This document shows, in pieces, positions 13,831-39,594 of a stretch of DNA of 64,000 nt. The notes under the pieces are model-generated. The model saw only the letters and a list, made by a program, of their open reading frames with translations. It did not search any database and was not told the origin of the DNA. How positions within the stretch are numbered: the stretch's first letter is position 1; every line of letters begins with the position of its first letter. Location: contig JAGIQG010000023.1 of NCBI GenBank assembly GCA_024679065.1, positions 9,982,001 to 10,046,000 of the forward strand. Direction: 5' to 3'. This DNA is from Sphyrna mokarran (taxonomy: Eukaryota). Made by a program: the position numbers and the translations under genes.

Positions 13831-13844
13831 TCTATTTCTAAACT

Positions 13845-13886
13845 AACACTTATTATCTGACTGTCCACCTCTGGCTGTTACTCACC
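13845..13886 (-). pseudogene. Leader-exon donor remnant truncated by a Penelope insertion
   Basis: ctggctgttactcacc matches the donor context at 4262 and 58799, followed immediately by Penelope terminal sequence. Confidence 0.6.
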
Positions 13887-15617: not shown

Positions 15618-15893
15618 CTAATGACTTATGTTACTATATATTGCCATTTCAGATTCATCAAAGTTTGTATGTTGTTCTTTAGGGGCTATCATTGAATCTT
15701 GACACATCCTCACTGTTAACTGAGTGCCTTGACCTGGTAACTCTTCAGGCTTTTGAATCTGCAGTGCTGGATATGTGACTCCATCCTCATTGTTAGTGAA
15801 GCGGACAGTTTGCTCGCTGTGTGTTTCTGCTGAGTTCCCTCGATGGCACTTTACATTGGCATACACAATGTTCTCTTCTACAACTGCCAATTG
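15618..15893 (-). CDS. Terminal cytoplasmic exon with ITIMs (IVYANV, VTYPAL, AIYSNI)
   Basis: Acceptor ttgcag, phase 0; two I/V-x-Y-x-x-L/V motifs and a C-terminal ITIM-like tyrosine; TAG stop. Confidence 0.9.
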   Translation of the reverse strand, partial: QLAVVEENIVYANVKCHRGNSAETHSEQTVRFTNNEDGVTYPALQIQKPEELPGQGTQLTVRMCQDSMIAPKEQHTNFDESEMAIYSNISH

Positions 15894-16300
15894 CTGCAAT
15901 ATAGAAAATAAAGATCCAATTTATTTCCATTTATCTTAAATGATGATTTGTGGAGAAATCAATTTCTAGATTATTGCAAATCAGTTCACAAGTGATTGCA
16001 ACATTCGATAATCTATCTCCAGTGGTGAAACACATCATTTGTCCCAACTCCACATAAACCTGTCCAGTTAATCTCATCAAAATAACATTCAAATCCTTTC
16101 CTTCCCATGTGCTTATCCAGCTTTTGTTTGAATGTATTTCGGCTATTTGCCTCAACTGTTCCCCGTGATGGAAAATTTCAATTCTGAACACTCTGGGTAA
16201 AGATGCTTCTCTTGAATTTGCTGTTGGATGAATCTTTTTTATTCACACAAGGAATGTGGTAGTCGCTGGCTGGGCCAACATTTGTTGCCCATCCATAATT

Positions 16301-16728
16301 GGGGCATACATGCGATGGGTCGTGAGAGGGCTGCTCTTGGATCTTTTTCGAGAGTATCCTAGTGCTTCATGTCGTTAGTGTACGCTTGACCTGGACCATT
16401 TGATGGGCAACACGACAGCTCAGTGACTATCGCTGTGCTGTGCAGATACATGGATTTGGGCCTGTGTCTGTGGGAGTTTGCGCATTCTCCCGTGCTTGCG
16501 TGGGTTTTCTCCGGATGCTCCGGTTTCCTCCCACATCCCAAAGATGTGCTCTTAGGCTAATTGGCAAAACAAATTCTCCCTAAATTTGTCTCAAATTTGG
16601 TTTTTAATCCATAGATCTATAAACATGGACAGGGATCGCGGGTAAAGGTGGGAACATCGGGGTGGCGGCGCGGACTCGTTGGGCCGGAGGGCCTGTTTCC
16701 CGTGCTGTTTTGTTCTTTGTTCTTCTTT
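16301..16728 (+). mobile_element. V-SINE variant with an extended 5' head
   Basis: Full-length match to 38763-39187; V domain and (tgttctt)n tail; absent from duplicate block B. Confidence 0.75.
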
Positions 16729-17123
16729 GAATGGCTTCTTCGGCTATTTCAGGGGGCATTTATGAGCGGATGTAGGCCTGACCAAATATGGGCAGCAGAT
16801 TTCTGAAAGGAAATGTCCCTAAAGGACTTTAGTGGATGGTTTTTAATGCAATCAACAATAATTTTGTGCTTCTCATGTGACTCTTAATTCCAGTTTTTAT
16901 TGAGTTCTGCTGCGGTGGGATTTGAACTGAGGTCGCCAGAAAGATGATCCTGAATTTCTGGATTCCATTACCCCACTGCCTCCATGTTACTAATGACTAT
17001 TGTCGATTTCTGGTCACCGCTTGCATCTTTGTTATCTCTACTTGAATTTCAATCAGATCATTAGTCAAAGAGAGGCCCATCTTGCTGAATCTAGTTTTAA
17101 ATTTTAAATTTTCCAAGGCAGAA

Positions 17124-17713
17124 TGTGATATATAATTTTGCCGTCATTCAGCGAAATTGTACCTCGCATCCTCGATAGACCAAATGAAACTTCTGGGGTT
17201 TTAAATCAGCCTTTATTCACCCTTTAGCGAGGAGGTCTGCCTCCCACAAGGTGGTGTACTGGTACATGACACGCAGCATTCTATCTTTGCGTATCTTACT
17301 TATAATCCTCATACACCAATCACAAGGACACATTTGTTCAGAACTCATTGGTATCCAATTACAGCAAATAGTTCTGATATCTTCATTTATATCTGGTGAA
17401 TACAGTTAACCAGTTATAGCCTCTATATGCTTGTCTAATTATAATGATTAATTACTAACAAGGTGCGCCTACGTAGTTACACATCCAAACATCCATGCCT
17501 GCTGCTATAGCTTATGAATATCAGAGTTCTCTGTCCTGCCCCTTGGTCAGCTTGTGTGTGCTGCCCATTTGTAATTGTGGGAACCGCACTGAAACATCTT
17601 CACAGCAGCTTCCCAGTGAACTGTGCTGTAATTAATTCACAGGGGAACAGGGACTGCATTCAATGATGCAAACTCCTTCAGAATGACAGCATCTTTCATG
17701 TTACTATCTCACA
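17124..17713 (-). mobile_element. Solo LTR
   Basis: TGTGA..TCACA inverted termini; near-TSD gcagaa/gtagaa; TATAA and AATAAA on the minus strand. Confidence 0.6.
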
Positions 17714-18472
17714 GTAGAACCAGCATGAATGTCCATAGTTAATAGAAAGAAGAACATTTATCTGGAGCCTTCAACATAGTAAAAAGCCCCATAATGCATG
17801 GCAACATCATCAGGTACAAGCTGAAACTAAACCAAGGAAGAAGATATTAGTGAAGGTGAACAAAATCTTTCAAAGTTTTAAGGCAAAGATATTTTAGGGA
17901 ATGCCTTAAAGGAAAATGAAGTGATGAATTAGACAGAGAGGATTCCAGAGCTTCGGGACTAGATGATGAAGTTACAGCAAGGCCAATCTCTCATCACTGA
18001 ATATGTGGACCCATTAGCTTTTGATAGTATTTTCTTATTCTCAATTTTTGTTCTGTTTTGGCAGTAATACTTGAGACTTCACATTTCTGAGAACGTAAAC
18101 TGACAAATGTCATCAAATCCAAAGGTGGGATGAAATAATTAATGAGGACTCATTTCTGACGGTAAAGCCAAGATCTGTCTCCCTTTGTGCTCATCCAATG
18201 AGATTAATGATTGGAGCCAATCCAAGGTGTAGTTCAGTCAAACATCATCAATACATTTAAGGCAAAAGCACAGAAACAAATGTGAGGGAAAGGAACAGAA
18301 GCTTATATTGTTTGGGTTGGATAAAGAGGGATGGGAGGAGGCTTGTGTGGAGCAGCAAATCCAGCATGGACCAGTTGGCCTGAATGGCTTGTTTCAGTGC
18401 TGTAAATTCTACATCATCCAGGTTTGAAAATTTCCAGACATTAGTCAGAGAATTCATACTGAATCTCCTCAC

Positions 18473-18525
18473 CTGATTGTCATGAAGATTATCATTGTCT
18501 CCTCCATGGCTTATGTCATTTGTAT
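18473..18525 (-). CDS. Cytoplasmic exon DTNDISHGGDNDNLHDNQ
   Basis: Acceptor ttccatttttcag, donor CAG|GTGAGG; phase 1 to 0, bridging the TM and terminal exons. Confidence 0.8.
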
Positions 18526-18794
18526 CTGAAAAATGGAAATGTTAACATTGAAAATGCTTTAATTGGAATGGTTGCTATCTTAGAATGTCTCAAGGTACAT
18601 TGATTAGCATTTAAAGAAAGCCAAATGGGTTGTTATCTTTTGTTACAGAAAGGTTTGTGAATAAAATGGGAAATTGGTGAGGCTACACCTAAAGTGCAAT
18701 TTGTAGGCTTTAGCTTCAGGTAGGACACAACAGCTCACTATTCACTGCACTGATTCACAAGAAGGAAATTGTGTTATGAAGAAAGATTGAACAG

Positions 18795-19350
18795 TACAAA
18801 ACTCTAGTGCGGCCGCACTTGGAGTATTGTGTGCAGTTCTGGTCCCCACATTATAAGAAAGATGTGGAGGCATTGGAGAGGGTACAGAGGAGGTTTACCA
18901 GGATGTTGCCTGGTATGGATGGCAGGTCTTATGAAGAGAGGCTGAGGGATTTGAGGTTGTTTTCGTTAGAAAGGAGGCGGCTAAGAGGGGACCTAATCGA
19001 AACATATAAGATGATTTAGAGGTTTAGATAGGGTGGACAGTGATAGCCTTTTTCCTAGGATGGAGAAAGCTAGCACGAGGGGACACAGCTTTAAATTAAG
19101 GGGTGATAGTTATAGGACTGATATCAGAGGCAGGTTCTTTACCCAAAGGTGGTTCGGGAGTGGAATGCCCTGCCTGCAGCAGTTGTAGATGCGCCAAGTT
19201 TGGTGGCGTTTAAGAGGTTAGTTGATAAGTATATGGAAGAGAAGGGAATGGTTTAGTTTGGAAGGGCATTGCTTTTTATATTGGTCGGCGCAACATTGAA
19301 GGCCGAAGGGCCTGTTCTGTGCTGTAATGTTCTATGTTCTATGTTCTAGA
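18795..19350 (+). mobile_element. CR1 LINE 3' fragment (HER1-like)
   Basis: [52 protein letters not shown]; (tgttcta)n tail. Confidence 0.92.
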
Positions 19351-20568
19351 CCAGATGTAGCAACTCAAGGCAACTTAATGTGGTAAGTTATTAATCGAGA
19401 AGAATTCTATATAATGAAGCATTTAACATCAGAACGATACAGGTCAACTCCTAATAGTGCCTGGGCTTCAAAAGCCTCTGGAGCTGCACGCCCTCGCTCC
19501 CGATAGGCTTGTGCACTTGCGTTAGGGCCCAATCACATGACCCCTCTAGCATTGTGCATAAAGGGGCAATGGGACTACACCAAGCCGATATTCTCTGCTG
19601 TTCAGCCGGACGTGAGATGATCTCATTAAAAAAAAATTGTAATTGACTTCACAGGGCAGATATAGAGGGAATTCTTCCTTTGACTGGAGAATCTAGAACA
19701 CAGATTCTATAAGACCGTAACACATTAGATATAGGAGCAGAATTAGTGCATTCAGCCTATCGAGTCTGCTCCACCATTCAATCATGCCTGATAAGTTTCT
19801 CAACCCCAATTTTTTGCCTTTTCTCCAAATCCTATGATCCCTTCACCACTCATGAATCTATCCATCTCTGCCTTAAATCTGTCACAATCCCAGAGCACAG
19901 TGTGGATCTATTTACTGAGATTGGATGAGGTCACAGAAGGTTCTGTATCTTTGGAATTCTCTCTTGCAGAAAGCTGTGAATGCTCCACCATTGAGTACAT
20001 TCAAGTCAGATATCAATAGATTTTTGGGAGTTTGAGGAACTAGGCTATCATACTGAAAGATCATTGTAAGATTTCCCTCACATAGCTAAGCAAAGAAATG
20101 ACTTGTGGAGAAATTTTCCCATCCTGTCCACATTGTGAATCATAGCGGACGGGATAGAAAATTTGGCGGACCATCTAAAAGGTCCAATGACCTGGGATGG
20201 AATTTCCAATCTTGAGACATACACAGCCAAAATAATTCTGCCCTTGGTCATAAACAAATCTACATGATCCTATTGAAGACGCAGCAGATGGGCTGAATGG
20301 CCTACTCCTGTTCCTATTTCTGCTGGTCTTATGGTCTCTGTCATTCTAAACCCATGTTGAGTTTCACTTCCTCCAGAGTTCACAAAGTTATTTGTTGTTT
20401 CCGAACAACAGAAACAACTTCAATGTTCTTCCATGATTAACACTATATTAAAATGTGCAGGATACCAGAATCAGAGATTTTATTGATTGCAGCAAATTAG
20501 GCTCTCTTTATATACTTCAGAAAATTATTGAAATATAACAAAATGAGTCAGGAGAAACAGAAACTCAC

Positions 20569-20657
20569 CCTTGTCAATTCGCCTCCGGTACAAAAGCAGA
20601 GAAACGGCGAATACCACAAGAAAGGCCCCCAGCACCCCCAGCACAATGTAAACCAGA
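20569..20657 (-). CDS. Transmembrane exon LVYIVLGVLGAFLVVFAVSLLLYRRRIDK
   Basis: About 23 hydrophobic residues with no charge, then an RRR stop-transfer; acceptor tcacag, donor G|GTGAGT; phase 2 to 1. Confidence 0.92.
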
Positions 20658-20764
20658 CTGTGACACAGAGAATAGGAAATGAGCAGTGCTGGACTTTACA
20701 ATCAAAGAAATTTTACAGCGCAGAAAGTGACCACTTGGTCCATCATTTCTACTGTGTCTAAAAA

Positions 20765-21640
20765 TCAGCTCCCCCCCGCCACTGTAGTCCCACTCTCCAG
20801 CATTTTGTCCATTGCTCTGCAGATTATCCAAACATTTTTGAAATGAATTGAGTGTTTCTGCCTTTACCACACTTTCAGAAAACTACAGCCCTCTGGGTGG
20901 AAAGTTTTCCTCATCTCTCCTCAAATCTTTCTACCAATTTCTTTAAATTCATGCTCCTCAGTCGCTGATCTCCCTGCTAAAATAAACTGGTCCTTCCCAT
21001 CCACTCTATCCGGGCCCTTTACATTGCTGTGCATCTCAATCAATTCTCCCCTAAACCAAGCTGAACAACCTCAGCTAACCAAATTTTTCTTTTTCCAGTC
21101 CTGGCAACATCCTTGTAAGTCTCCTTTCTGATAAATCCTTTTTGTCACGAGGTGATCAGAAATGCACACAATACTCATGTTGAGGCCTAACTAATATCTT
21201 ATATTGTTCCAGCATTATCTTTCTGACCTTATATTACATATCTTGGCTAATAAATGAAAGGATTCCATGTGCCTTCTTAACCGACTTATCGATCTATCTT
21301 GCTACCTTCAAGGACCTGTGGACATTCATTCCAAGGATTTTCATTTCCTCTATATCCTCCCATTTATTGTCTAACCATTTGCTTTGTTTGACCTGCTCAA
21401 ATGCATCACCTCATACTTTTCTAGGTGGAATTCCATTTGACACTTTTCTGCCCACCTGAACAATCCATTGATATCTATCTGCAGTCGATAGCGATCCTCC
21501 TCGCTACCTGCAGCATTGGTAATTTTCATTGTATTACATATAATCATTAATATGCACCAGAGAAAGCAGAGAACCTAGCACTGAGCATTGGAACCAGCCT
21601 TCCAGTCACAAAAACAGCCATCAACAATCATCCTTTGTTT
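20765..21640 (-). mobile_element. Old CR1 LINE fragment
   Basis: Antisense, degenerate CR1 ORF2 C-terminus (MVKAETLNSFQKCLD; tgcacacaatactc). Confidence 0.6.
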
Positions 21641-21903
21641 CCTGCTATAATAGATTCTTGGCCATTTGTTTACAGAAGTGGGTTTTAAAATTATACAGCC
21701 CTTTTCGCATCCTTTGGGTGGTCTAAAGAGCTATACACTCGAGGAAATACTTTTAAACAACCACCAATGTTGTGATATAAAAGATGTGGCAACCAATTTA
21801 CACAGAAAAAAGCCTCGGGAACAGCAGTGAACATTGACCAGATCAATATTGGTCATTTCTTCAGTGTTCTCCTTGTCTGCTTTCTCTGTCGATAAGAAAT
21901 TAC

Positions 21904-22026
21904 CTGCTGTGTATTCCCAGCAGCTTTTTCATCATGTTGATGTTTAGTTGGTATTTTCTCATCGTCATCATTGTAACCTCCGTGTTTACATCGGACAACA
22001 ATTTCTGCTCTTTCTGTATGCCCCAA
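21904..22026 (-). CDS. Candidate optional second stalk exon (123 nt, symmetric)
   Basis: Acceptor catag after a pyrimidine tract; donor CAG|GTAATT; open in phase 2. The encoded peptide is not diagnostic. Confidence 0.35.
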
Positions 22027-23318
22027 CTATGTTCGGGATTGTGAGTTTTAACAGAAAAGGAAAAGACTTGGTTTGCACATGTAGATTCAAGCAAACACAA
22101 AACAGGTTTTAATGAAGAGCTGCTCTCTGCACTGCATCAAGTTGAAAACTAACAGTAACACAGCAGCCTGAGCCCGTACCTTAACAGCATCATATCAAAT
22201 CAACCCTTTTTAAAATTTGCATCTTTATTATGAAGCAAACACAACAACATCTCGCCAACATTCCTGATCTGAGAGCTATTGAAAAACAGTGCCTAGTCTC
22301 CCAGATTATCAGAGACTGGACATATGACCCAAGATGTGTGTCAGGACCCTGCAGATGACCCAACATGATGACCTCCATGAATTGCCTGGGATATTGGAAC
22401 TTCCAGTGGAAAATTCTGCTGTTCCCTGGGTCCCTCTGTGAAAATCTTCAGCTCTGAGGTAAAAGCTTCAAACAATTCATTGGGGCTTAACTGGATAATT
22501 ACCCAGGAAATATTAGACAGAAAGAATCAAGTTTAATTCCTGGGCAACCACAGAACTGACCACCGAATAATCACACTGACCCTCTGAATTCCTCCCAATC
22601 CTCTGATGAACCCGCTGACACACCACCTATCACCCCCCATCCGGAATTATCCCATCTGATTTTGTGACTATGCCATAACCTGAGCCAACCCAATTATTCT
22701 CTCTGACTAACCTTTGGACCCACCACTTGATTACCCAATGTCTGAATCTGATTAACCCTCAAACCAGGCTACCTCTGCCAACCTGATCCAATTACCACGC
22801 CATTCATCTACTGCCTCATCAACCTACTACTTCATCCAACTGCTACTCTACCCTCCTGTCACCTCATCAACTTAATATCTCACTCAACTATGACCCTTCC
22901 TATCTATCACCTCACCTATCTGCAATCCCACCCATCTCACACACCTATAATCTCACTCACCTGTATTCTCACCCATCTACCATGCCTCCGACTAACAACT
23001 CATCTATACACCTGATTCTCTCTCTATCCATCTCTCACCCTACCCACCTGTTGTCCTACAAAGTTGTGATGGAGTTCTCAGAGGATCGCTGCATTCCACA
23101 GTTCTGGAAAATTTAGACTTGGAAAATCAGACAAGAAATGTGGAGCTGAGTCGAGGATGGAAAGCTTCGAGTGGAATGGCAATCCAACAATGATTGCTGC
23201 TCTGTGACTGACCCAGGACAATAAATGATATCCATCCTTGCGCCTAAGTTGTTCAAGAGGATTTAATCACTCACACAGAATCCGTGTCATTTAAACACTA
23301 ACAATAAAAACAACATAC

Positions 23319-23397
23319 CTTTTAGCAAGTTTGGAGTTTGGAATTGAGGAATGTGTTGGCGAAACTGTTAAAACGTCACAAGAATTTTCAGGTCCGA
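23319..23397 (-). CDS. Stalk exon VGPENSCDVLTVSPTHSSIPNSKLAK
   Basis: Acceptor ttgtttcag, donor AAG|GTATGT. Phase 1 to 2, exactly bridging C2-3 (phase 1) and the TM exon (phase 2). S/T/P rich. Confidence 0.8.
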
Positions 23398-24754
23398 CTG
23401 AAACAAGAAAACAACATTCAGATCAGCCTCATTTTTATTGTCATTAACGAGAGAGTCACATTGTCAAGTGGCACTCGACCAGAGGGAGAACCTCGATGAG
23501 GGAGCACCTCACCTTAGGATGTGAGTGTCACTGTTGAAGTCAGCAATTATTGCCCATCCCCAATTGCCCTTGAGATGATAGTCATGAGATGCCTCTCGAA
23601 TCGCTGCAGTCCTTGTGCTGTAGGTACATCCACAGTGCTGTGAGTGAGGGAGCACCCATCAAATCTGTGCCATTCAAAGCCAAACCACCTGACTATTCTA
23701 ATCCCATTTTCCAAAACGTAGCCCATAGCTTTGTGCGCCTTGGCATCACGAGTGCACATCTAAATGATTCTTAAATGTTATGAGGGTCTCTAAAGCACCA
23801 GGAAAATTTGCCTAATTCTCTTGGAAGAGGGCCGTGCAATCATTTATATTTAGCTGAAAGGACATGTGGGCTCACAGTTCAACCAGACAATAGCACTGTC
23901 AACAGCAGAGCACAATCTCTGGGCTGTACAGGGATATCAACACCTTTCTCGGAAAGAGAATTTGAACTCACAACCCATTGGTTTCAGAAATCAGGCTGCT
24001 ACCAACTGAGCCCCTTCTAACACTGACACATATTAAACATTCAAACAGGTTAAAGTACTCGTTAATTCCAAACTATAATTAGTGTTTATGTTAACACTGA
24101 GGAATTTAATGTTTAGAGCATGGAATTTCTGAAAGTTTGAGCAGCACTTTGTGATGATAGAATTTTACGCAAAGAAGGAAATTTGGTCCATTTCCTTCCA
24201 TCGCTATGAGAGAATTTGCCATTTAGAATCATAGAATCCTTGCAGTGCACTAGGAGGCCATTTGGCCCATTGAGTCTACAGCGACACTCCTATTGTCGTA
24301 TCTTTTCTCCAAATTCTCCTTTATGTTTGCCCCTTTTTTTGCTTCCCCTTGTAAAAGCTATTATTGATCCTGGTTCTAATCCAGTCCATACCCTAATAAT
24401 CATTTGCATCTATAAAATTCTCCCAACTTCTCCTGTTGTCTTTGTTATGATGGTCTTAATTGTATTCTCTGTGTTATTGACTCACTTACTACTGGAAATA
24501 ATTGGTCTCAATTTTATCTTATTAAAGCCCCAAATAATTTTGAATAAATCTAGCAAATCATTTCCTTCTATTCTAATGATTCTCTGCCGGTGTCAGCTAT
24601 TGGTAGCAACCACAAGGTTCTGTATTCAAGCCTTGCTCTAGGACTCAAAAATCAAAGCTGACACTCCTGTGCAGTACCAAGGAAGTGCTGCACAGTTGGA
24701 GGTGCTGTATTTCGGACAGGATGTTGAACTGAGTCCCTAGTCTGCCTGCTCTAT

Positions 24755-25200
24755 GGGTAGCATGTTGGTACAGTGGTTAGCACTGCTGCCTTACAGCGCC
24801 AGAGACCCGGGTTCAGTTCTGGCCTCGGGTAATTGTTTGTGTAGAGTTGTGTAGAGTGTCTGTGTGGATTTCCCCTGGGCGTTCTGGTTACCACCTACAA
24901 GCCAAAGATGTGCAGGTTAAGTGGATTGGCCAAGCTAAATTGCCTCTTAATGTCATGGGGAACTACATAGAACATAGAACAATACAGCACAGAACAGGCC
25001 CTTCGGCCTTCGATGTTGTGCCGACCAAAAATAAAAAGCAATGCCCCTCCTAACTAAACCATTCCCTTCTCTTCCATATACTTATCAACTAAAAACTAGC
25101 TTGGGTAAATGCATGAGGTTATAGTGACGAGGCCTGGGTGGGATTGTTGTTGGCAGAGACTCAATGGGCTGAATGGCTCTTTCTGCACTGAAGGATTTTA
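24755..25200 (+). mobile_element. V-SINE with a nested short antisense LINE tail
   Basis: A/B boxes and V domain; (catagaa)n insert near 24965. Confidence 0.75.
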
Positions 25201-25875
25201 TGGATTCTATGAATCTATGGATGTATAAGATCTGTGGCACAAGATCTCCTGAAGAAAAACAGAAGCATTGTTCCAAATCACCCAACGATATTTATTCCTC
25301 GATCAAAAACAGGTTCCCAGTTCATTATTTTGAGTTTACTGTGTGCAAATTGGCTGCTGTGTTTCCTGCCTCGCAAGAATGACAGTGTTTCAAAAAGCTT
25401 TTCATCGGATATAAAGTAATTTGAGAAGTCATGTTACTATGAAAATAAATTTGAGACATTCTTTCATTTTGTCAGTGAGACCTGTTAAGATGTGATCGTT
25501 TTACATCAACTCTTTAACTCTCTATCCTTACCATTCATCCTAAAGCAAGAGACATCAGCTAAAGGCTGTTTTTCACAATTTGATCTCGAAGAAATGGGAA
25601 CAGGAATGGTTCATGGATACTTTATCAGTCAAGTTCTATTTAATTTTAATGGGATTACTGCAACATTTACATATGTTTGAGCAATATTTTATGATCCTGA
25701 TATTTTCAATCAATATTTTAATCAGTAACTTTTTCCGCGTGGTTGAGAGACAAAGCAGAGTGAATTTTATCATTGCAGTCATTCAGAGAGACTTTAGGAA
25801 ATAAAGCCGCAACCAGCTTATTTAAACATCAATTAATATTTCAGTGACACATTGTATGTTCATACTATCACTTAC

Positions 25876-26199
25876 CAACGCTGTTGATCTGTGTCACATA
25901 ACTGCAGTTCTCCCCTGATCTGTTGATCACTGACACTGTAACCATTTCACTGGATTTGTCTCCCTGGTTATTTGAGGCTGTGCAGTAATATTGATGATGT
26001 TGCTGTGTGAAGGATTGACAATGTAGATCCAGTTTATTGGTGTCAGAGATCTTTGAATCTTCAGACGGGGTCTTTTCATACCATGTGTACTGAATGGGAA
26101 GTGATCCCTGGACAGACTCACAGGAAATGGACACTGAACCCCCAGAACATGAGGCATTTGGTGGTGATAAAAATCTAAGTTTAGGAACAGAAATTGGTT
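25876..26199 (-). CDS. Ig C2-type domain 3 (membrane-proximal)
   Basis: EPISVPKLRFLSPPNASC..ISCESVQG..YYCTASN..NCSYVTQINSV; donor G|GTAAGT. Confidence 0.92.
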
Positions 26200-26313
26200 C
26201 TGTTGGAAAGGAACAAACATTTAGATACTGATTGAATGTTAAAAATTAAAATATTTCTATGTTGCCAATATTTATACAGCTCATCCAGCGTGTGAGGAGG
26301 AGGGAAGAATGTT

Positions 26314-26344
<31 letters not shown>

Positions 26345-26599
26345 TGGGAGCTTGGCCGATTACGAGTAGTATCTACTAATTGCTGTCTATGACAACAGAT
26401 ATTCATGACGGAAGATTAGTTAGTAACAAGCATTGGAGTGTGACCTGAGACAGACTGTGGATATTTGCTGAGATGATGGAGACTTAAATATCTTTTTAAA
26501 AGTCTTGGGATATTAGACATATCAATGTCCCCTCCAGATAAAGCATCGTTCAGACATTTCAGTTGAGAGTAATAAAGATAATCACTGAGAACAATTTAC

Positions 26600-26908
26600 C
26601 ATCAGATATTTGTAGCTTTACAGGAAATATTGAAAGTAGGCCGGGTTTATCAATACCACAGCTGTACCATCCTGCATCTCCTGGGCGAAGATCCTCTATA
26701 GTAACAACAAATACTCCTTGTGTCTTGTTATCTGTGATCGACATTCTCCCTCGCCGTCCATCTGGATCATCTGATTTTACCAAAACAGAGCACTGACGAG
26801 TCCAATATTTTACGTGTGACTGGGACAATTTGTCATAGTGACAATTGATAGTGATCGCTCTTCCCAAAACTCCTGTTACATTATTTTTTGCCCACAAAGC
26901 ACTTGTAG
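26600..26908 (-). CDS. Ig V domain 3
   Basis: ATSALWAKNNVTG..INCHY..KYWTRQC..DAGWYSCG; 309 nt; about 95% nt identical to V2 by manual comparison. Confidence 0.92.
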
Positions 26909-27579: not shown

Positions 27580-27903
27580 CAATGCTGCTGATTTGTGTTA
27601 AATAACTGCAATCATTCTCTGAAATGTGAATCACTGACACTGTAACCATTTCACTGGATTTGTCTCCATGGTTATTTGAGGCTGTGCAGTAATATTGATG
27701 ATGTCGCTGTGTGAAGGATTGACAATGTAGATCCAGTTTATTGGTGTCAGAGATCTTTGAATCTTCAGACGGGGTCTTTTCATACCATGTGTACTGAATG
27801 GGAAATGATCCCTGGACAGACTCACAGGAGATGGACACTGAGCCCCCAGAACATGAGGCATTTGGTGGTGATAGAAATTTCAATTCAGGAACAGACACGG
27901 GTT
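27580..27903 (-). CDS. Ig C2-type domain 2
   Basis: Near-identical to 31711-32034; 324 nt; canonical splice sites. Confidence 0.92.
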
Positions 27904-29133: not shown

Positions 29134-29442
29134 CGTCAGATATTTGTAGCTTTACAGGAAATATTGAAAGTAGGCCGGGTTTATCAATACCACAAGTGTA
29201 CCATCCTGCATCTCCTGGGCGAAGATCCTCCATAGTAACAACAAATAATCCTTGTGTCTTGTTATCTGTGATCGACATTCTCCCTCGCCGTCCATCTGGA
29301 TCATCTGATTTTACCAAAACAGAGCACTGACGACTCCAATATTTCATATATGACTGGGACAATTTGTCATAGTGACAATCGATAGTGATTGCTCTTCCCA
29401 AAACTCCTATTACATTATTTTTTGCCCACAATGCACTCGGAG
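29134..29442 (-). CDS. Ig V domain 2
   Basis: APSALWAKNNVIGVLGRAITIDCHY..KYWSRQC..DAGWYTCG; 309 nt; phase 1-1. Confidence 0.92.
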
Positions 29443-31710
29443 CTGAAAAGACAACAGGTCAAAAATTGAACTGGAAATAGTTGTTTAATACAATCAGATA
29501 TATTTCAATGGGATTTACCACTATGTTGAGAGAAATCTGTCCAGCACATCTTCTAATACAATTGAATACCTCCTTGTTAGAGGTGTTGGGAACATTAATT
29601 GAATGAGTGGAATTTTCTAGAAAAAATTCAAATTATCAGGTTGAGACTGAAAACTAGTGAGTTTCTGTCCAGAAAGACAGACAGCTTTTCACACCAGATC
29701 TCCTGACATTGTCAAAAAAATCCGGGGGCGTGGTTTGTGTTGTCACTCTAGTTGGGTGCAGCCTGATTGGGCTGGCAAGGCCGTCTCCATAGAGATTGGG
29801 TACTATTTTTAAAGTTGAAGTTAAAGAATCCGCCTGTTGCTCACAGATATCAGGCTCTATCTCATGGACTTTGGGACCTCCAATGGACAAGGGAAAATGC
29901 CCCTCACATGAAGGGTCAACCTCCCCTCAGCATCCCACCACTCAAAGAATGGGTCACCCAACACCAGCCCTTCTCTGTCAGCATTCCCACTCCCACTTCC
30001 CACAGCCTCGATACCAAACCTGCCATTCAAATTCTCTAGCACCGTGCATGCACAATTCCTAACCCTACCCCCCCCCAAACCACCCCACATTGACCAAAGA
30101 TATCAGGCCCCAGCTCATTGACATTGGAATCCCCCACCATGGACAAGCGGAACAGTATTCCAAAGAAGGACTGGGGAAAGTTTATCTCTCAATGATAAAC
30201 CTCATAATCTTCAAGGGGAACCATTAATTGACCTCCTCATTGTGTTTATTGAATATGATCTCCCTGGCCATGATAATTATCTAACCATGTGGAGTTCATA
30301 TATCAAGCTTTATATGAAGCAAGACCTTGAGAGGATCCATTAACATTTTGGTCCTGGTTTCAAGGTATTGAAACTTTAACGCTGTTTCCATCAACAGAAT
30401 GTGCCTAGCCAGGTAGGTATTGCCAGCATTTTCTGTCTTTGTTACAGATTCTATCATCAGCAGCATTTTGCTTTTGCAATTTCTTCAATTCTTTTTTATT
30501 TTCAAAAGGATTATAACACACTGTGGACTAAAAGGTACATTTACTTCTTACTATTAATTAGAACTGTACTCACTGATGCTAACTGTAATTCAAGGTTATC
30601 ACTCACATATTTGAGTCAGATGATTGTGGGCTCAAGTCCTGTTCTAGTGACTTGAGCACAACCTAGGCTGAAACTACAGTAAATACTATTAGAAATGTCA
30701 ATTCTCAGAGAGACATTACACTGACGTTCTCTTGTCTTCTCAAGTGGGCATGGAAAGTTGCATGGTATTACCTTGAACAAGGTCAAGGAGGTTGTTTCAG
30801 TTCTCTGACCCTTACTTATCACTAAAACAGATGACCTAGTTAGTGTTTGTTGACTTTGCTATTGATAACTTGGGCACTTTTTGCAGCCTGTGGAGTTCAT
30901 AGAACACGTATATGTTAACTACCATTTTCTGCATCTCCACTTTCAATTTCCATAAAAAGCCGTTTTTAGATTTTGACTGCAATTCTGTCCTATGCTGTTG
31001 ATGTTTTGGCACCCAGAGGGATAACAAGAAGGAAGAGCTAGTTAACCTGTTCCTGGGCAAGGCTAAACTTGACTTCAATAGTTCCAGTGGGCAGTCTGGT
31101 GGCAGGGAAGGGGGGCCGTGTCTTCTGATTTGGCTATTTTCCACTCTTCTTCTGCTATATTCACAGATGGGTATCCTTGGCAAGGGAACATCTAGCAACT
31201 GCCAAAGCAATCGAGGTCGTCTGTGCCCATGAGGATTAAAATGTTAATCGATCCTCTCAAGGTCTTGCTTTATACAATAGAGTTGTTGTACGAACAGCTT
31301 CATTTCGCCATCAACTTTGTGTTCACCACAGTCGTGTGGTTATTATTTATTCTCTTTTATGCATCAAAAGCACGCTTCTTTCACATCCGGCTCCTAGAGT
31401 TGTCATATTCTCAAGCAGGAATGGTCAGAGAGCAGATTGTCTGCTCATGATCAAATCGCTCTTTAAGGGATCTTATCTTTCACAAATTGGTGCTGAGCTT
31501 CCTACATCACAACAATGGCTCTGAATCAGTTCCAGCATTGACCAGAACGGACTTTAAAACTGTCCTGAAGATGTGAAAAGCGCCAAATAAATGCAATTAT
31601 ATTTTAATTCCAATTGCTTTGAGCGATTGATAGAACTTAAACTGTAAGCAATTCAGACTAAGTTAATTTACAAATTAGTTGTAATTTTTGAAGCTTAAAG
31701 TGATATTTAC

Positions 31711-32034
31711 CAACGCTGCCGATTTGTGTTAAATAACTGCAATCATTCTCTGAAATGTGGATCACTGACACTGTAACCATTTCACTGGATTTGTCTCCCT
31801 GGTTATTTGAGGCTGTGCAGTAATATTGATGATGTCGCTGTGTGAAGTATTGACAATGTAGATCCAGTTTATTGGTGTCAGAGATCTTTGAATCTTCAGA
31901 CGGGGTCTTTTTATACCACGTGTACTGAATGGGAAGTGATCCCTGGACCGACTGACAGGAGATGGACACTGAGCCCCCAGAACATGAGGCATTTGGTGGT
32001 GATAGAAATTTCAATTCAGGAACAGACACGGGTT
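31711..32034 (-). CDS. Ig C2-type domain 1
   Basis: EPVSVP..GGSVSISCQSVQGSLPIQYTWY..YYCTASN; 324 nt; phase 1-1; canonical splice sites. Confidence 0.92.
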
Positions 32035-33120
32035 CTGTGGGAAGAAAAACAATCATTAATGGATTTTTCACAGTCACTTCATTGCAGTGTTAATGTAGGC
32101 CTTCTTTGTGGCACTAAGTCAAAAAAGCTTTAACTTTAAATTTAAAAACTTTAGTCATTAAGAATGACCAAAAAGTTAAATAGTTTCATATTATCAATAT
32201 TTCTCAACCTCACCCAGGGTATGAGGAGGAAAGGAAATTGTTAGAGAGAGAGAGAGAGTGCGATGGCAGTGGAAACTTGGCCGAATGCATGTAGTATCTA
32301 TTGATTGTTCTCATGGACAGCAGATATTCACGATAGCAAATTAGTTAGTGACAAGTATTGGACGTTACCCGAGATAGACTCTAGATGTTTGCTGAGATAT
32401 GGAGATTTAAATACCTTTCCTAAAATCTAACCTTATCCTGAATTCTCTGATTTCAGGTGATTAGCCCCCACTGCCAGTTGGAAGAGGGAATTTGGCGCTC
32501 AGGCAAATCTCCATTCACAGTGGGACTGGATAATTCCAGCTGTGGATGAGTTTGGTGAATTCCAGCCATTGTTTTTATTTGTTTTAACATTTAACATTAA
32601 GTGCCATTTGACATTTAAATGTCAGTATTGTTTAAAGTCTAGGGTGAGGTTTTATGGCCTCAAATGAATGAGACTGGAAAACCCTGCCCAAGGTCAACAG
32701 ACATTTCTGTTGTCTGTCCCACACCTGCTCCAATACTATGGCAGGCAAGGCAGTAAAATTCCAACATAAGTATCATCCAAAGGACATGAGCTGGGAGATA
32801 GAAACCATCAGTTGACAGCAAACGAAATAGTTAATTGGGGAAATTGGCTTGAACTGCTCTTTTTGTACTGAGTCCCTTTGTTTCTGAACTCAGGGCTGGA
32901 GTCTGACTTCAACTGAGTGTGGAGGTTTAAGGAACTGAAGGAATTTACTACAGGGGAAGTGAACTGTTGGTGAGCATCTGGTAAGTGTTTGAGAAGTGAT
33001 CAAGGTCTATTCCCCAGGCATCAGGAGCATGGATAGGGTCCTTGCCAATTTGTTAACCAGTAGATTGTGGTCCAAAGTGCTCTGAATCCATTCCAGCATT
33101 GACCACAATGGACTTTAAAG

Positions 33121-33230
33121 CTATCCTGAAGATGTGAAAAATGCCAAGTATATGCAATTATATTTTAATTCCAACACTGGTTCTGTGGGAAAGAAACAAA
33201 CATTCAGAAACTGACTGAATATCTAAAAAT
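33121..33230 (-). pseudogene. Remnant of a deleted C2 exon (intact 3' splice site plus first codons EPV)
   Basis: tttctttcccacag|AACCAGTG matches the C2 acceptors (cf. 26199, 32034) but is fused directly to sequence matching the intron that follows C2 (cf. 31518-31614). Confidence 0.75.
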
Positions 33231-33624
33231 CAAACACTCTGTGAATTTCAGCTTGTCAACCTTTCATTCAGGGTCAGTCATGTTGCAATCTCACCAATAC
33301 ATCTTGCTTTCCATATCTCTCCATCCTCCAAATAGCCTGAACTACAATGTCTACTATTATATCAGAATATAGGAGCTCTCCAGTTCAGACCATGAAGCAG
33401 GAGACAAAGATTTAAATTAATTGGTGAATGGATTAGAGAAGATTTGGGACAATGGGTTATTTCACTCAGGGACATTGAGGATCTGGAGCTCACTGCCTGG
33501 AAGAGTGGGAGAGGGTGGGAGAGGCAGATAACCTGATCACATTAAACAAAATGAATTAAACTTGAGATGCTGTAACCTACAGGACTCTGGATCAAGAACT
33601 AGATGGTGGGATTAGATTGGACCC

Positions 33625-33770
33625 AGTGTGATTAGCACTGCAGCCTCACAGGACCCGGATTCAATTCCAGCATTGGCTGTGTGGTCAGTGTGGAGTTTGC
33701 ATGTTCTCCCCATGTCTGCATGGTTTTCCTCTGGGTGCTTCAGTTTCCCCCCACAAACAAAGATATGCAT
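33625..33770 (+). mobile_element. V-SINE fragment
   Basis: attagcactgcagcctcacaggacccggattcaattcc..gtggagtttgcatgttctcccc. Confidence 0.75.
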
Positions 33771-34309
33771 ATATCTATGGGGAGGTGGTGGTCTAGTGGT
33801 GTTCTCGCACATCCAAAATCTCAGTTAATGTTCTGAGGACCTGTCTTCGAATCCCGGCATGGCAGGTCGTGGAATTTGATTTCAAAGAAGAAAATCTGGA
33901 ACTAAGAATTTACTGATGACCATGAAACCATTGTCGGTTATTGGAAAAACCCGTCTGGTTCACTAATGCCTACAAGGGAATGAAATCTACCATCCTTTCC
34001 TGGTCTGGCCTACATGAGATGCCAGAACCAAAACAATGTGATTGATTCTTAACCATCCTCTGAAATGGCCTCGCAAGCCTTTCGGGATGGGCAATAAATG
34101 CCACCCAGCCAGCGATGCACATGTCCCCAGATGAATGAAAAACAAATACTTGCACCTCCCAACAGGCATCAGTGCCAATGTGGGTGGTGCTGCAGGGGGC
34201 AGAGGGGCTGGCATACTGGAGGGTGGGACCTATTGGGGGCTTAATGAGTTGGGAGTTTTCACTGACCCTGTGCACTGGGATCGGTAGGAGAGGGAAAGGG
34301 GAGCGTGAA

Positions 34310-34492
34310 CAGCATTGGCCATCGGGGTGGGGGGAGATCGGGGCTGGCCATCTGGGTGGGGGGAGTTCGGGGCTGGCCATCTGGCTGGGGAGAGATTGGG
34401 ACTGGCCATCTGGGTGGGGGGGAGATTGGGACTGGCCATCTGGGTGGGGGGGAGATTGGGACTGGCCATCTGGGTGGGGGGAAATCAGGGCT
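34310..34492. repeat. G-rich ~30-bp tandem repeat (gggggagattgggactggccatctgggtgg)n, about 6 units
   Basis: Direct tandem copies. Confidence 0.85.
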
Positions 34493-35329
34493 AGCCCAGG
34501 AGAGCTCTGATAGGCCAGTGGTCAGATGGTGGAGGAAGTTGAGATGGCCAGCAATCGGGAGGCCAGCTATGAGGAGACCAGTGTGCATGTACCAATATCC
34601 ACAGTGACAGATTGGTATGTGTGCAGTGGTCCACTCAGCACTACGCTGTGGCCTCTCCAGTGGGATTTGGACCCACGGACCACACTTCAGGTGGAATCAA
34701 TCAGTGTTGGAGAATCATTCTGGTCCATCACTTATGTTGTCAAATGAGCCTCTTCAGACTCTGGAATTCCAACATATCAAGGAAACTGATCAGGAAACGT
34801 GTACTCCCTGTGTTGTGGGATTGCCCATCAACGAGCTGCTTGTCTTTGTTCAATCCTTTGTCTTGAGGAGCTCAGGCTCTGTGTGGGGGAAGCAGTTGCT
34901 GCTATTGATGCTATTGGTCACCTGGGTCCTCATCTGAAGCCCAAACTAAAATAAAACAGCCTGAGATCCACCCATGCTGATCTGATAGACATAATCATCA
35001 AAACGTCATTCAGAAATACACATTCCGGCCACTGTTGTGAAAATCGACACCCTGTAAATACTGATATTAAACCTTTCACACAATCCGGCTAGAAATAAGC
35101 AGTGAGGTTCCAATCCTTTCTGGCATCTTTCCCAGTCACTTCTTCAGCCTCCCCCATTGCCTCTGTTTTCTGCCCTTGCTCAGTAACCCGAGCAGCCACA
35201 GATAGATTCCACTAATTACACTCGCTGACTGATTAATAGACTGAAACTGATAAATCATCTCTCAGCAGGTAGGGGATTTGATCACACACTGATTGACATG
35301 TTTAAAGCTTCCATGGAGATTTTTATGAT

Positions 35330-35872
35330 CATGTGGAACATTTGGAATATGGTGTCCAATTCTGGTCACAACACAACCAGAAAGATGTGGAGGCTTTGGG
35401 GAGATTGCAGAAAAGATTTACCAGGTTGTTGCCTGGTGTGGAGGGTATTAACTCTGAGGAGACTTTGAAAGAGTTGGGATTATTCACTCTGGAAAGACGG
35501 AGGCCGAGGTGCGACCTGATAGAAATTTATAAAATTATGTAAGTTATAGATAGAGTGAACAGTTGGAAGATTTTTCCCAGGGCAAAAATGACAATTACAA
35601 GGGGGCACAAGTCAAGTTCTTAGGGGAAAAGTTCAGTGGAAAGTGCAGGAGAACTTTTTTACACAGATGATGGGTGGGGATCTGGAACACACTGCCAAAT
35701 GAGGTGGTTGGAGCAGATACGTTAGCCACATTTCAGAGTTATTGTGACAGACATATAAACAAACAGGGAGGAGAGGAATATAAGCACTTGGTCTAGATCG
35801 GTAAATGTGATTGGTGCAGGCTTGGAGGGTGGAAGGGCCTGTTCCTGTGCTGTCCTGTTCTTTGTTCTTTGA
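35330..35872 (+). mobile_element. CR1 LINE 3' fragment
   Basis: HLEYGVQFWS..RRRPRCDLIEIYKIM; tgttctt tail. Confidence 0.9.
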
Positions 35873-36204
35873 TCCCTTTCAGGGGCTTTCGCCATGTTGG
35901 ATTATTTAGTTGTTAAATTTCCGATTTGTTAACTTTTAACCTGTTAGCTTCACCCTGAATTTTCACTGGTTTATTTGAAAGAAGCACAAACTGACACATT
36001 GCAGATACATACGGATGTTGGGAGTTTGACTGGCTTCCCAACATATTGTCAATTTCTGTATATTTAACCCCTCTGTGCTCCCCTACCCACCCCCAAAGGC
36101 CCACCATTCGCTGCTAAACCAACAAGGTACAATTACTACCAACTGGGTGCTCACTTCACTTTGTCAATGTCTGACTATTAGATTGTTCTGGTCTGCAAAA
36201 ATCT

Positions 36205-36475
36205 TGATGTAGAGATGCCGGCATTGGACTGGGGTAAACTCAGTAAGAGGTCTGACAACACTAGTTTTAAGTTCAACCGATTTCTTTGATAGTAAACTTG
36301 CTAGCTTTTGGCGTTTATGCCTTCGTCGTGCGAATGAGGTGTTCTTGTCTCCAAAAGCTTTTGGAAACCAGAACACCTCATTTGCCTGACGAAGGCACAA
36401 ATGCCGAAAGCTAGCAAGTTTACTATCAAATAAATCGGTTGGATTTAAAATTGGTGTTGCGAGGCGTCTTACTGC
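36205..36475. mobile_element. Penelope-derived fold-back (inverted terminal repeats, about 235-bp hairpin)
   Basis: Arms 36241-36357 and 36358-36475 are reverse complements around ccaaaagcttttgg; the start matches the Penelope start at 48487. Confidence 0.85.
36380..36419 (+). ncRNA. Minimal Penelope-type hammerhead ribozyme motif
   Basis: AUUUGC-CUGACGA-A-GGCA(CAAA)UGCC-GAAA-GC-UA-GCAAGU: intact core, helix II, helix I pairing and a palindromic AGCU helix III. Confidence 0.7.
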
Positions 36476-36788
36476 AAAAATCTGACAGTGTGATATTTAA
36501 TACATTTCAGAGACAGAAAAAATATTCTGAGCATCACAGGTAATGGCTTTCACAATATCCCATAGTGAAAGGAATTGTTTGTCCGATAATGATTGAAGTT
36601 TTTGATCACAGTGTTGGACAGACCACAAGTTGAGTTTGTGTCACAAGAATGGGATTTCCAGGCCTCTGCCCTCTAGCTGTCAGACTCTGCATTGCTCCAG
36701 AGCCTCGGGATATCTGTCAATGTTTCCTCGCGAATAAAACATGGATCCGGCATTTTAGTACTAAAGAAAATCATTGAGAATAACACAC

Positions 36789-37109
36789 CGTGAGATATTT
36801 GCAACTCCACAGTAAACTTTGGATCGAGGTGAGGTGTATCAATTCCACAGCGATACCATCCTGCATCTCCTGAGTGAAGATCCTCCATCGTAACAGCAAA
36901 TATTCCTTGTGCCTTGTTATCTGTGATCGATATTCTCCCTCGCCGTCCATCTGGATCATCCGTTCTCACTAAATATGAGCATTGGTCAGTCCAACCCTGA
37001 CACCAATATTTCACATTTTCTTTGTATTGTTCAGTATAATAGCAATTTATTGTGATCACTCTTCCCACAATTCCTGTGACTCTCTTTTCTGCCCACAATG
37101 CACCTGAAA
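36789..37109 (-). CDS. Ig V domain 1 (CD300/pIgR type)
   Basis: VTGIVGRVITINCYY..KYWCQGWTDQC..GRISITDN..FAVTMEDLHSGDAGWYRCG. The second Cys pair (KYWC-x6-C) is typical of CD300/pIgR/TREM. Acceptor tcttcag, donor gtgtgt, phase 1-1. Confidence 0.93.
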
Positions 37110-38274
37110 CTGAAGAGACAACATTTCAGCAATTGACCAAGTAAATAACTGCTTAATGCAGAGAGAAACATTTTAATAAGATTTACCACTGCTTACAGAG
37201 GGAACTCTCCAATATCTGTATTCATCATTCTCTTTCTAGTTTGTGCTGAATGAAAACATGAATATAAAGCCGTGCTGTCAGTGCTAAAGTACTTCACTGC
37301 CAATGATTTCTTGTTAATGTATAGTGGCCATAGTTATTGTGTCACCTTGTCACTGGTTCCCTGACATGGAGAAAATCCTGGGGATGGCTGGAATTTCAAA
37401 GCCCCAAGATTGACAGTGGGACTGGAGTTGGGCTGGCATCACACAGACGTGATTCGTTCAATTCTGGATTGCCTTAAATTCATCATCTGCCTCAAGTGAA
37501 ATGGGATTTTGGATGAACAGAAGTGTGTGTGGAATCTGGAATGTGCAGATTAGAATAGTGAAGAAAATAGTGAACTTCGTGGATTCTTATGGAAGCCAGG
37601 GCGCACCTTCTGGAGAGGGAAGTTACTCTTTGGGAGGGGAGAGTTACATTTTGGTATGAACTCTAGTGAGTTGTCAGGGCTGAAATGATTATTAGGTTAT
37701 TTAAATTATTTTATTTATTAACCATGGCGGTGGGGCACAGAAACAGACCTTGTGTCCAGTTCACCTCCGGGCTGAACAGCCTGTGGGTTTGTTCCTGGGT
37801 TGCTCATCACAACTTATTTTTTAATGCCTTCCCTGACTCAGTGAACACGGTCCAGGGACGGCAATCTGGGCCTCAGTCTGACCCACAGGTCAGTGCATCA
37901 GGAAAGGCGCATTACTCAGAAAAAAATACAATGAAGTTTCCCAAGGCTGGTTTCTGGGATAAGGGGATGGGATGGGAACAGGTTGAGTCCACAAGGTGCA
38001 TATTCCCTGTCTGTTCTCCAGGAGCAGTTGTTAACTATGCAGTTTTTAGCGTCAATTCAACGAGCAATCAACTGAAATCGATCTCAGGCAGCTCTTAATA
38101 TTAGGGAGAGACAATTGTTTTCAGAGAGTGTGAGGAGCAACTTTCCACAGGAACGGGGAAAGGTCAGGAGACAGATTTCCATAATCTACCACAACCAGTC
38201 TGAGGATTGAACCCTTGCCAATGGAATCATCCTGCATTGCACTCTAACAAACTGAGTGAATCAAACTCTCCAGT

Positions 38275-38660
38275 CTGCAGGATGCCACCAGGTATGGAAG
38301 GTCTGAGTTACGAGGAGAGATTAGGCAAATTGGGGCTGTTTTCCTTAGAAAGACATAGACTTAGAGGAGATCTAATAGAGGTGTACAAGATTATGAGGGG
38401 TATAGATAGAGTAAACAGGATTAAGCTTTTTCCTAGGATGGACTCGAATAGCATGAGGGGTCATGGGCTTAGGGTGAAGGAGGTAAGGTATAATTTGGAT
38501 GCTAGAAGAACTTTTTCACACAGAGGATGGTGGGGGTATGGAATGCGCTGCCAAGTAAAGTGGTGGAGGCAGGCATTCTGGAGTTATTTAAGAAATACTT
38601 AGATGGACACATGAACAGAATGGGAATGGAGGGGTATAGAAAACTGATTTAAAATAGGGA
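38275..38660 (+). mobile_element. CR1 LINE 3' fragment
   Basis: [45 protein letters not shown]. Confidence 0.9.
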
Positions 38661-38762
38661 ACATGAGCCTTGGGAATCCCTGGGAAGTGTGTAAATAGAT
38701 GATGATATTGATGTATATGTTTTTATCCTACAGGGGCTTTGGTCCACCTTGTTGTCTAACAA

Positions 38763-39187
38763 GGGGCATACACGCGATGGGTCGTGAGAGGGCTGCTTCT
38801 TGGATTTTTTCGAGAGTGTTCTCGTACTTCACTTCTAGTTAGTGTACACTTGATCTGGACCATTTGATGGGCAATACGATATCTCAGTGACTATCACTGT
38901 GCTGTGCAGATACATGGATTTAGGCCTGTGTCTGTGGGAGTTTGTGCGTTCTTCCTGTGCTTGTGTGGGTTTTCTCCAGGTGCTCCAGTTTCCTCCCACA
39001 ACTCAAAAATGTGCTCTTAGGCTAATTGGCAAAACAAATTCTCCCTAAATTGTCTCAAGTTTGGTTTTTAATCCATAGATCTATAAACGTAGTCAGGGAT
39101 CATGGGTAGAGGTGGGAACATCGGGGTAGCGGCGCGGGCTCGTTGGGCCAAAGGGCCTGTTTCCCGTGCTGTTTTGTTCTTTCTTCT
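38763..39187 (+). mobile_element. V-SINE variant with an extended 5' head (second copy)
   Basis: Matches 16301-16728. Confidence 0.75.
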
Positions 39188-39557
39188 TTAATATATTGAG
39201 CATGAAACTACATTAACAAGTTAACCTTCACTGTACTTAAGTGTGTTGTTTCTGCATTTTAATTATTTCAATTACTTCAATTATTTCAATTATTTCTTTT
39301 ATATTAAGAAAAATAAATAGGTTAATTTATATTCATAATCAATAATGTTGTTTACTATTTGCTGGGCAAATATCTCTGTAGTAAAATACTATCAACAAAA
39401 TTGCTATAAATATTATAAAAATGTCATTAATTTATTTTTGCTGAGTTATTGTCGCTTTACATGCCTCCAAGTGTTTAAATATCTCTGCAGGATAAACCAT
39501 GCACTAGACTTAATGTAACACTTAACATCTCAATATCCAGTTCTGTCCCTTACTCAC

Positions 39558-39594
39558 CAGGCAGAGAAGAGATGAAAAGAATTAAAATCCACAT
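39558..39594 (-). CDS. Leader (signal peptide) exon MWILILFISSLP, phase 1
   Basis: ATG followed by a hydrophobic run; 37 nt; donor G|GTGAGT; joins to VSGALWA of the V1 exon. Confidence 0.9.

Follow-up and report, generated by a model that had tools for sequence, protein, structure and literature searches.

Which part of a long immunoglobulin (Ig) receptor meets the ligand, and what are its other domains for? This question is raised by a stretch of 64,000 nucleotides (nt) of the Sphyrna mokarran genome (assembly GCA_024679065.1, contig JAGIQG010000023.1, positions 9,982,001 to 10,046,000; hereafter the window), whose minus strand carries a gene for a receptor with six Ig domains, arranged in three V-C2 modules. 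The product is probably an inhibitory type I membrane protein of the MDIR family, in which one likely ligand-binding V domain is held out on a predicted spacer of C2-V units. Judging by automatic annotations, the three-module gene alone is an ordinary family member; what is new is the specialised internal V domain, the gain and loss of modules, and two anchorless neighbours with 20 and 28 Ig domains. The interest of the locus lies in this range of lengths and in the giant forms lacking a transmembrane (TM) segment, less in the three-module gene itself.

Gene model of the three-module receptor

The exons of the gene, and a relic inside its second intron, are listed in the order of transcription, with window positions.

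39558..39594, minus strand: exon 1, signal peptide, 37 nt, ending in phase 1; the same 37-nt exon heads other cluster genes
36789..37109, minus strand: V1, V domain of CD300/pIgR type with four Cys (C-C' pair kept) and an FG-loop Asp; Pfam V-set, best Protein Data Bank (PDB) match CD300f
33079..33196, minus strand: remnant of a fourth module since deleted (intact C2 acceptor and the initial 9 nt of its exon, then a piece of C2-to-V intron joined to V-to-C2 intron)
31711..32034, minus strand: C2a, FCRL-like C2 with five Cys and a C-terminal extension; Pfam match, best PDB match FCRL5
29134..29442, minus strand: V2, an internal V with 4 residues fewer and three Cys, lacking the FG-loop Asp; Pfam V-set
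27580..27903, minus strand: C2b, sister of C2a (96.9% DNA identity), from DNA comparison and tree
26600..26908, minus strand: V3, internal V, 94.8% DNA identity to V2, from DNA comparison
25876..26199, minus strand: C2c, terminal-type C2, grouping with the last C2 of neighbouring genes
23319..23397, minus strand: stalk exon, 79 nt, one Cys, matching the stalk of Mustelus proteins P0003 and P0082
20569..20657, minus strand: TM exon, uncharged helix, from the translation
18473..18525, minus strand: first cytoplasmic exon, 53 nt, from the assembled gene model
15618..15893, minus strand: last exon, with two strict immunoreceptor tyrosine-based inhibitory motifs (ITIMs), one ITIM-like motif and the stop, from a motif scan

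The 11 exons encode 814 amino acids (aa) in an uninterrupted frame; each of the 10 introns is GT-AG, and all six Ig exons are of phase 1-1. The protein runs from the signal peptide through (V-C2)x3, a stalk, an uncharged TM helix and a short cytoplasmic exon to the ITIM-bearing last exon. Thus, the intact, in-phase, six-domain type I protein proposed by the initial annotation is recovered, and so is its uncharged TM segment (no D, E, K, R or H in 23 residues). The Pfam scan, which took V1, V2, C2a, C2c and the last exon and left out V3 and C2b, placed V-set on both V exons (E 4e-12 to 9e-12) and Ig_3/Ig_2 on both C2 exons (E 3e-7 to 2e-6), with no match in the tail exon. Under a strict ITIM pattern, [ILVS]xYxx[LV], two motifs are found in the tail (IVYANV and VTYPAL, residues 732 and 762); AIYSNI fails this pattern, so that the three tyrosine motifs first reported come down to two ITIMs and one ITIM-like motif. 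They follow an uncharged TM, as in an ITIM receptor, and could recruit SHP-1/2, a recruitment established for ITIMs in general.

The three modules are not identical. DNA identity is 94.8% between V2 and V3 and 91-97% among the C2 exons, intron lengths differ between modules (1230 vs 400 nt, 2268 vs 671 nt), and there is no N anywhere in the window, which argues for diverged copies and against a duplication made by the assembly. The open frames go beyond chance: of the 5 duplicated exons, 2.7 were expected to acquire a stop under simulated neutral point mutation, and only 41 of 2000 runs stayed stop-free. The ratio of nonsynonymous to synonymous rates (dN/dS) is 0.41 for the V and 0.48 for the C2 exons.

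Two further observations concern the 3' parts. One Mustelus model uses an alternative terminal exon that begins some 315 nt beyond internal C2 exons; such an exon was considered here and rejected, since its pyrimidine tract is poor, its frame varies and several copies contain stops. A minisatellite with units of about 25 nt lies 3' of the last exon both here (window 13840-14970) and in the neighbouring gene D (61820-62260), and yields long spurious open reading frames (ORFs) in several frames.

V types and module turnover

The V domains of the receptor are of two types. Compared with V1, the internal V exons are 12 nt shorter (4 residues, in the CC' loop) and V2 and V3 lack the C-strand Cys of the CD300-type C-C' disulfide. 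Their identity is 62-65% to V1 vs 87% to the internal V of a Mustelus protein, and they fall in a clade (support 0.908) with internal V domains of Mustelus, Carcharodon, Cetorhinus, Stegostoma, Hemiscyllium and Chiloscyllium. The tree was computed with FastTree on 143 V domains from 33 chosen database proteins plus 18 of our 42 V exons, and its deep nodes are weak. First V domains share 49-95% identity (mean 66), internal ones 83-97% (mean 90).

On this basis, the view of the initial annotation that the internal V domains are copies of the N-terminal V is not supported: an origin of V2 and V3 as recent copies of V1 is rejected by their identity, their shorter length, the missing Cys and the cross-genus clade. 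The VSGALWA-type start, taken there as a sign of copying, also opens the internal V domains of skate MDIR3 and MDIR5. As for the signal-peptide remnant seen at the start of the V exons, only some three residues resemble a signal-peptide tail; the W of 'ALWA' pairs with residue 5 in the pIgR D1 chain and hence belongs to the domain.

The two types differ where CD300 proteins bind. In CD300lf, according to the accessible part of PMC6166816, the CC' and CDR3 loops flank the lipid head group, which rests on a pocket floor made by the Cys36-Cys44 disulfide, Asp98 binds Ca2+, and the lipid/metal pocket comprises Cys36-Cys44, Tyr34, Trp89, Asp98 and Met100. V1 retains the Cys pair, the Tyr and the Asp, its FG-loop Asp mapping to CD300lf chain position 98; V2 and V3 have neither the Asp nor the full Cys pair, one Cys being lost. 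A loose pattern for the FG-loop Asp is present in the first V of 12 of 13 cluster exons and 87 of 107 database domains, and in none of our 25 three-Cys internal V domains (2/23 in the database). Since the C-C' disulfide and the Asp98 equivalent are kept, V1 could bind through a CD300-type Ca2+/head-group pocket; the internal V domains, lacking both, would act as a rod or spacer. A lipid ligand is only a guess, because Trp89 and Met100 are not kept in V1.

The C2 domains add a second pattern. An extra A'-strand Cys is found in the C2 preceding a three-Cys V in 20 of 21 database cases and 23 of 25 of ours, and in 35/85 of those preceding a four-Cys V, the three-Cys cases being of one origin and hence not independent. 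This pairing suggests, as a hypothesis only, a C2-to-V inter-domain disulfide that replaces the lost C-C' bond. In gene I of the cluster, an 8-residue insertion restores a second Cys in the CC' region of an internal V (contig 10238573-10238905), and the preceding C2 has lost its A'-strand Cys by a 3-residue deletion; this fits the disulfide idea as a single case. In an AlphaFold model of a stand-in protein, P0035 (pLDDT 75.5, pTM 0.44), the three-Cys V is still predicted as a beta-sandwich and the C2 extension as an extra strand, and Foldseek with this model gave low-scoring matches to pIgR and other Ig chains (TM-score about 0.2).

The array itself has both grown and shrunk. Intron homologies indicate that the repeat unit is a C2 plus an internal V, its breakpoints falling in the V-to-C2 intron; V1 at one end of the array and the last C2 at the other are each unique. 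The sister relationship of C2a and C2b (support 0.93) points to gain, and C2c clusters with the last C2 of other genes. For the loss, intron 2 holds an intact C2 acceptor with 9 nt of a C2 exon (33196-33174), followed 3' by a piece of C2-to-V intron and then by V-to-C2 intron, a structure from which we read that a fourth module was deleted. Therefore, of the tandem duplication of a V-C2 pair first proposed, the duplication of modules stands; its unit is C2-V(internal), and one module was lost as well. Unequal crossing-over between phase-1 modules would lengthen or shorten the rod, and rod length would set reach or avidity with head and signal unchanged. Clades formed by the V domains of a single gene (Pristiophorus 0.975, Hemitrygon 0.995, Cetorhinus 0.912) imply that long forms arose separately in several lineages.

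Several points weigh against a single head on a spacer. That one mRNA carries all three modules is a prediction based on splice signals and relatives, and the intact orphan acceptor at 33183 could compete with that of C2a, although the exon so opened has an in-frame stop. The pairing of V1 with CD300lf 58-107 was read from equal-length stretches, and at the same offset V1 has Arg at Trp89 and Lys at Met100. The P0035 model leaves the inter-domain geometry unfixed (pTM 0.44), so that 'rod' describes a presumed shape. Finally, the Asp is retained in 66 of 124 four-Cys internal V domains of other species, and repeats there may add binding sites.

This last point leads to the alternative that every V binds ligand and that repeats strengthen binding to polymeric targets, such as polymers of shark IgM/IgW or a microbial surface with a repeated pattern, through avidity, as in pIgR or FCRL5. 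We consider it unlikely for this gene. It would agree with the best whole-chain PDB matches (pIgR for V, FCRL5 for C2), with purifying selection on internal V exons (dN/dS 0.28-0.43), and with the many internal V domains outside the three-Cys clade that retain both disulfides and the Asp. However, the internal V domains here have lost four CC' residues, one pocket Cys and the Asp, uniformly across genes, and the pIgR score sums several weak domain matches: per domain, CD300f reaches 75.7 vs 39.4 bits.

The cluster and its anchorless giants

A search of the S. mokarran genome (2.77 Gb) gave at least 41 C2 and at least 50 V matches, all on this contig between 9.94 and 10.56 Mb, and the cluster annotation covered 564 kb. 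Ectodomains of 1, 2, 3, 10 and 14 modules were found there, which, together with the domain identities, bears out the proposal that the gene is of inhibitory type, belongs to an MDIR cluster and varies its ectodomain in units of whole modules. Genes A, E, M and N are one-module inhibitory genes, gene J is V-C2-V, and gene I has two modules and a truncated tail. ITIM-type tails are carried by genes A, C, E, J, M and N and Arg-containing TM exons by G, K and L; in B the same exon type lacks the Arg, and in F it contains a stop. Gene K (contig 10298900-10320800, plus strand) is a separate three-module form with V of the four-Cys type and an Arg TM.

The two longest genes, missed by the initial annotation, lie mostly outside the window. 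Gene D (contig 10044900-10084700, minus strand) joins a signal exon to 20 Ig exons, (V-C2)x10, giving 2123 aa without a stop; gene H (contig 10151300-10203800, minus strand) joins one to 28, (V-C2)x14, giving 2965 aa without a stop. The part of D in the window is the following.

62914..63228, minus strand: frameshifted last exon of gene D; the remaining exons are found to the right of the window

Both genes have lost their anchor. In D, the TM acceptor is lost, 5 nt are deleted, the donor is lost, the cytoplasmic exon is deleted and the last exon carries a frameshift and a stop. In H, the stalk has a stop, most of the TM exon and the cytoplasmic exon are deleted and the last exon is frameshifted; both ITIM tyrosines are lost too. 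Overall, six (D) and four (H) lesions fall in about 500 nt of 3' exons and none in the 6.4 and 8.9 kb of ectodomain exons. This contrast leads us to infer that selection continued to act on the ectodomains once the anchor had gone, making secreted products more likely than pseudogenes; the products of D and H may thus be secreted.

Alternatively, the extra modules could be tolerated by-products of an unstable array, their length having no function and the long TM-less neighbours being young pseudogenes. Symmetric phase-1 exons do duplicate without damage to the frame, the cluster contains broken genes (F, and the damaged tails of D, H and I), and the death of D and H could be very recent. Eight sequencing runs with 5-7% of the sequence words were listed, none recorded as RNA, which counts neither for nor against this view. 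We nevertheless regard this explanation as improbable. All exons of D (21/21) and H (29/29) are open with canonical sites, and dN/dS (V/C2), computed for each gene without one shorter C2 exon, amounts to 0.43/0.51 for D and 0.28/0.39 for H. In a neutral simulation, with mutation at half the pooled dS and a star-shaped history assumed, stops were expected in 11.4 of 19 (D) and 18.4 of 27 (H) internal exons, and none of 2000 runs was stop-free. The confinement of the lesions to the 3' exons also speaks against it, as does the recurrence of long forms in skates and rays.

An origin of the tandem modules in faulty assembly, or in the fusion of several genes, is highly improbable and was rejected: one database relative (P0003) does contain near-identical blocks and several database models show a mid-chain TM from fused neighbours, but here the modules are diverged (77-97% whole-module identity in D and H, no two identical), introns are unequal, no N gap occurs in genes C, D and H, and no signal, stalk or TM exon was found inside arrays D and H.

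In support of a shared head, V1 of D and V1 of the one-module, activating-type gene G are 96.3% identical in DNA. Tentatively, the cluster could belong to a length-tunable shark and ray system, in which a variable CD300-like head is carried on 1-14 C2-V spacers, possibly disulfide-stapled, and the giant products of 20 and 28 Ig domains (about 2100 and 3000 aa), anchorless and under selection, are secreted decoys or opsonins, D sharing its head with G. We hold this wider picture as a possibility, with less confidence than the one-head reading of the three-module receptor.

In the surroundings of these genes, V-only CD300/pIgR-like exons continue to 10.60 Mb, and flanking synteny gave only further V-only genes and repeats. 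Nine V-only exons of CD300/pIgR/TREM type were seen at contig 10454000-10595000, with activating-type TM exons near some. Signal-peptide-like exons are present on the minus strand of the window at 58769-58847, 61411-61566 and 4241-4310; the one near 4.3 kb heads gene B, whose other exons lie left of the window, and those near 58.8 and 61.5 kb appear orphaned, with no Ig exon behind. Window segments 634-16700 and 55600-64000 are 75-83% alike, as from a whole-gene duplication. Two long minus-strand ORFs (L066:299-3010 and L066:4074-6596; 904 and 841 aa) look retrotransposon-like by eye.

Family membership and known systems

From its sequence features, the three-module gene is a member of the known MDIR family. 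The accessible part of PMC3031540 describes MDIRs as a family of many genes, both activating and inhibitory, with kinship to CD300, TREM, FCAR and pIgR; that of PMC9321927 holds nothing on sharks. V1 is an N-terminal V of CD300/TREM/pIgR type with the extra C-C' Cys pair (V2 and V3 are without one Cys), the V and C2 modules are homologous to deposited MDIRs, and the cluster is multigene, with ITIM and charged-TM members.

A search with the C2a exon gave 216 candidates, 131 of them longer proteins, and the counts that follow cover the best 120 of these 131. All 120 come from sharks, rays, skates or a chimaera. Skate MDIR3 (ABC86797.1, P0060) and MDIR5 (ABC86800.1, P0055), whose sequences presumably derive from cDNA, were recovered with the C2 exon at E 1e-64 to 1e-66. 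Profiles from this cluster's exons give V-V-C2-V-C2-TM and three ITIMs for MDIR3, and V-C2-V-C2 plus a charged TM for MDIR5.

Compared domain by domain with MDIR, CD300, pIgR and FCRL, the receptor shows the kinship first suggested: identity to MDIR3/5 is 48-67% overall (V 48-58%, C2 50-67%), V1 is nearest to CD300f per domain (E 2.6e-20) and to pIgR per chain, and the C2 domains to FCRL5 (best domain 31 bits). In the V tree, the skate MDIR domains sit in a batoid clade apart from those of the three-module gene, to which no named ortholog is assigned; among database proteins, those of Mustelus asterias come closest to it, at 84-92% per matching domain.

The longest V-C2 run is 0 in 4 relatives, 1 in 51, 2 in 39, 3 in 16, 4 in 5, 5 in 2, 6 in 2 and 9 in 1, so that 26/120 have at least three modules in a run; these are automatic gene models, some of which fuse neighbours (mid-chain TM in P0005, P0006, P0011 and others), and the long counts are provisional. 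Exactly (V-C2)x3-TM is found in nine, six of them with a strict ITIM, from Mustelus, Mobula, Leucoraja, Hypanus, Rhinoraja, Heptranchias and Chiloscyllium. Contrary to what had been supposed, the three-module form is thus not lineage-specific. By sequence, such forms are common in unexamined shark and ray annotations, which makes the finding less singular than it first seemed. A second search added an automatic model of a thorny-skate protein with 19 domains and an MDIR3-like tail (P0121). No description of three-module or longer MDIR forms was found in the accessible literature, a weak negative since most subscription papers lie outside it. As a separate observation, the Rhinoraja automatic model P0061 has C2-V-C2-TM fused to TRIM-type Pfam families, which suggests a TRIM gene beside the skate cluster or a mis-joined model.

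The accessible text on MDIRs, these shark and skate relatives of CD300, pIgR and FCRL, does not name a ligand. The cluster offers a concrete prediction of a ligand site, the V1 pocket, and a set of natural constructs, in which near-identical heads stand on 1, 2, 3, 10 and 14 modules and the tail is inhibitory, activating or absent; as these separate head from spacer, reach and avidity become directly testable against each other.

Among known systems, MDIR3/5 share with this cluster the V and C2 types, the C2-to-V junction starting VSGALWA, and ITIM tails alongside Arg-containing TM forms. They differ in their four-Cys internal V domains and in their order (V-V-C2-V-C2 and V-C2-V-C2), compared with three modules, three-Cys internal V domains and 10- and 14-module neighbours here.

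CD300f (CMRF35-like molecule 1) is the nearest single-domain structural match of V1, with the C-C' disulfide and Asp98, and CD300 genes, inhibitory and activating, are paired in a cluster like this one. However, CD300 proteins have a single V and no C2, whereas the receptor has six domains, three of them C2, and its V1 does not keep Trp89 and Met100; membership in CD300 proper was rejected for its domain content. pIgR and the teleost pIgR-like proteins carry tandem V domains of the same subfamily and were the top Foldseek matches of the stand-in model. Yet pIgR, which transports Ig, consists of V domains only, and we know of no C2 and no ITIM pair of this kind in it; an ectodomain alternating V and C2 is not that of pIgR proper.

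The FCRL ectodomain is of C2 type only, and FCRL membership was likewise rejected, as the FCRL5-like C2 exons alternate here with V-set domains, although the repeats of FCRL5 best match these C2 domains. Siglec-1, with one head on a long Ig stalk, has a plan resembling this gene. Unlike the present cluster, where a C2-V pair is repeated in 1-14 copies, FCRL5 and Siglec-1 repeat a single C2.

For secreted forms, a precedent is carp SITR, in the accessible part of PMC3031540 a soluble, TM-less relative of the CD300/MDIR group with two Ig domains, compared with which the products of genes D and H would have 20 and 28.

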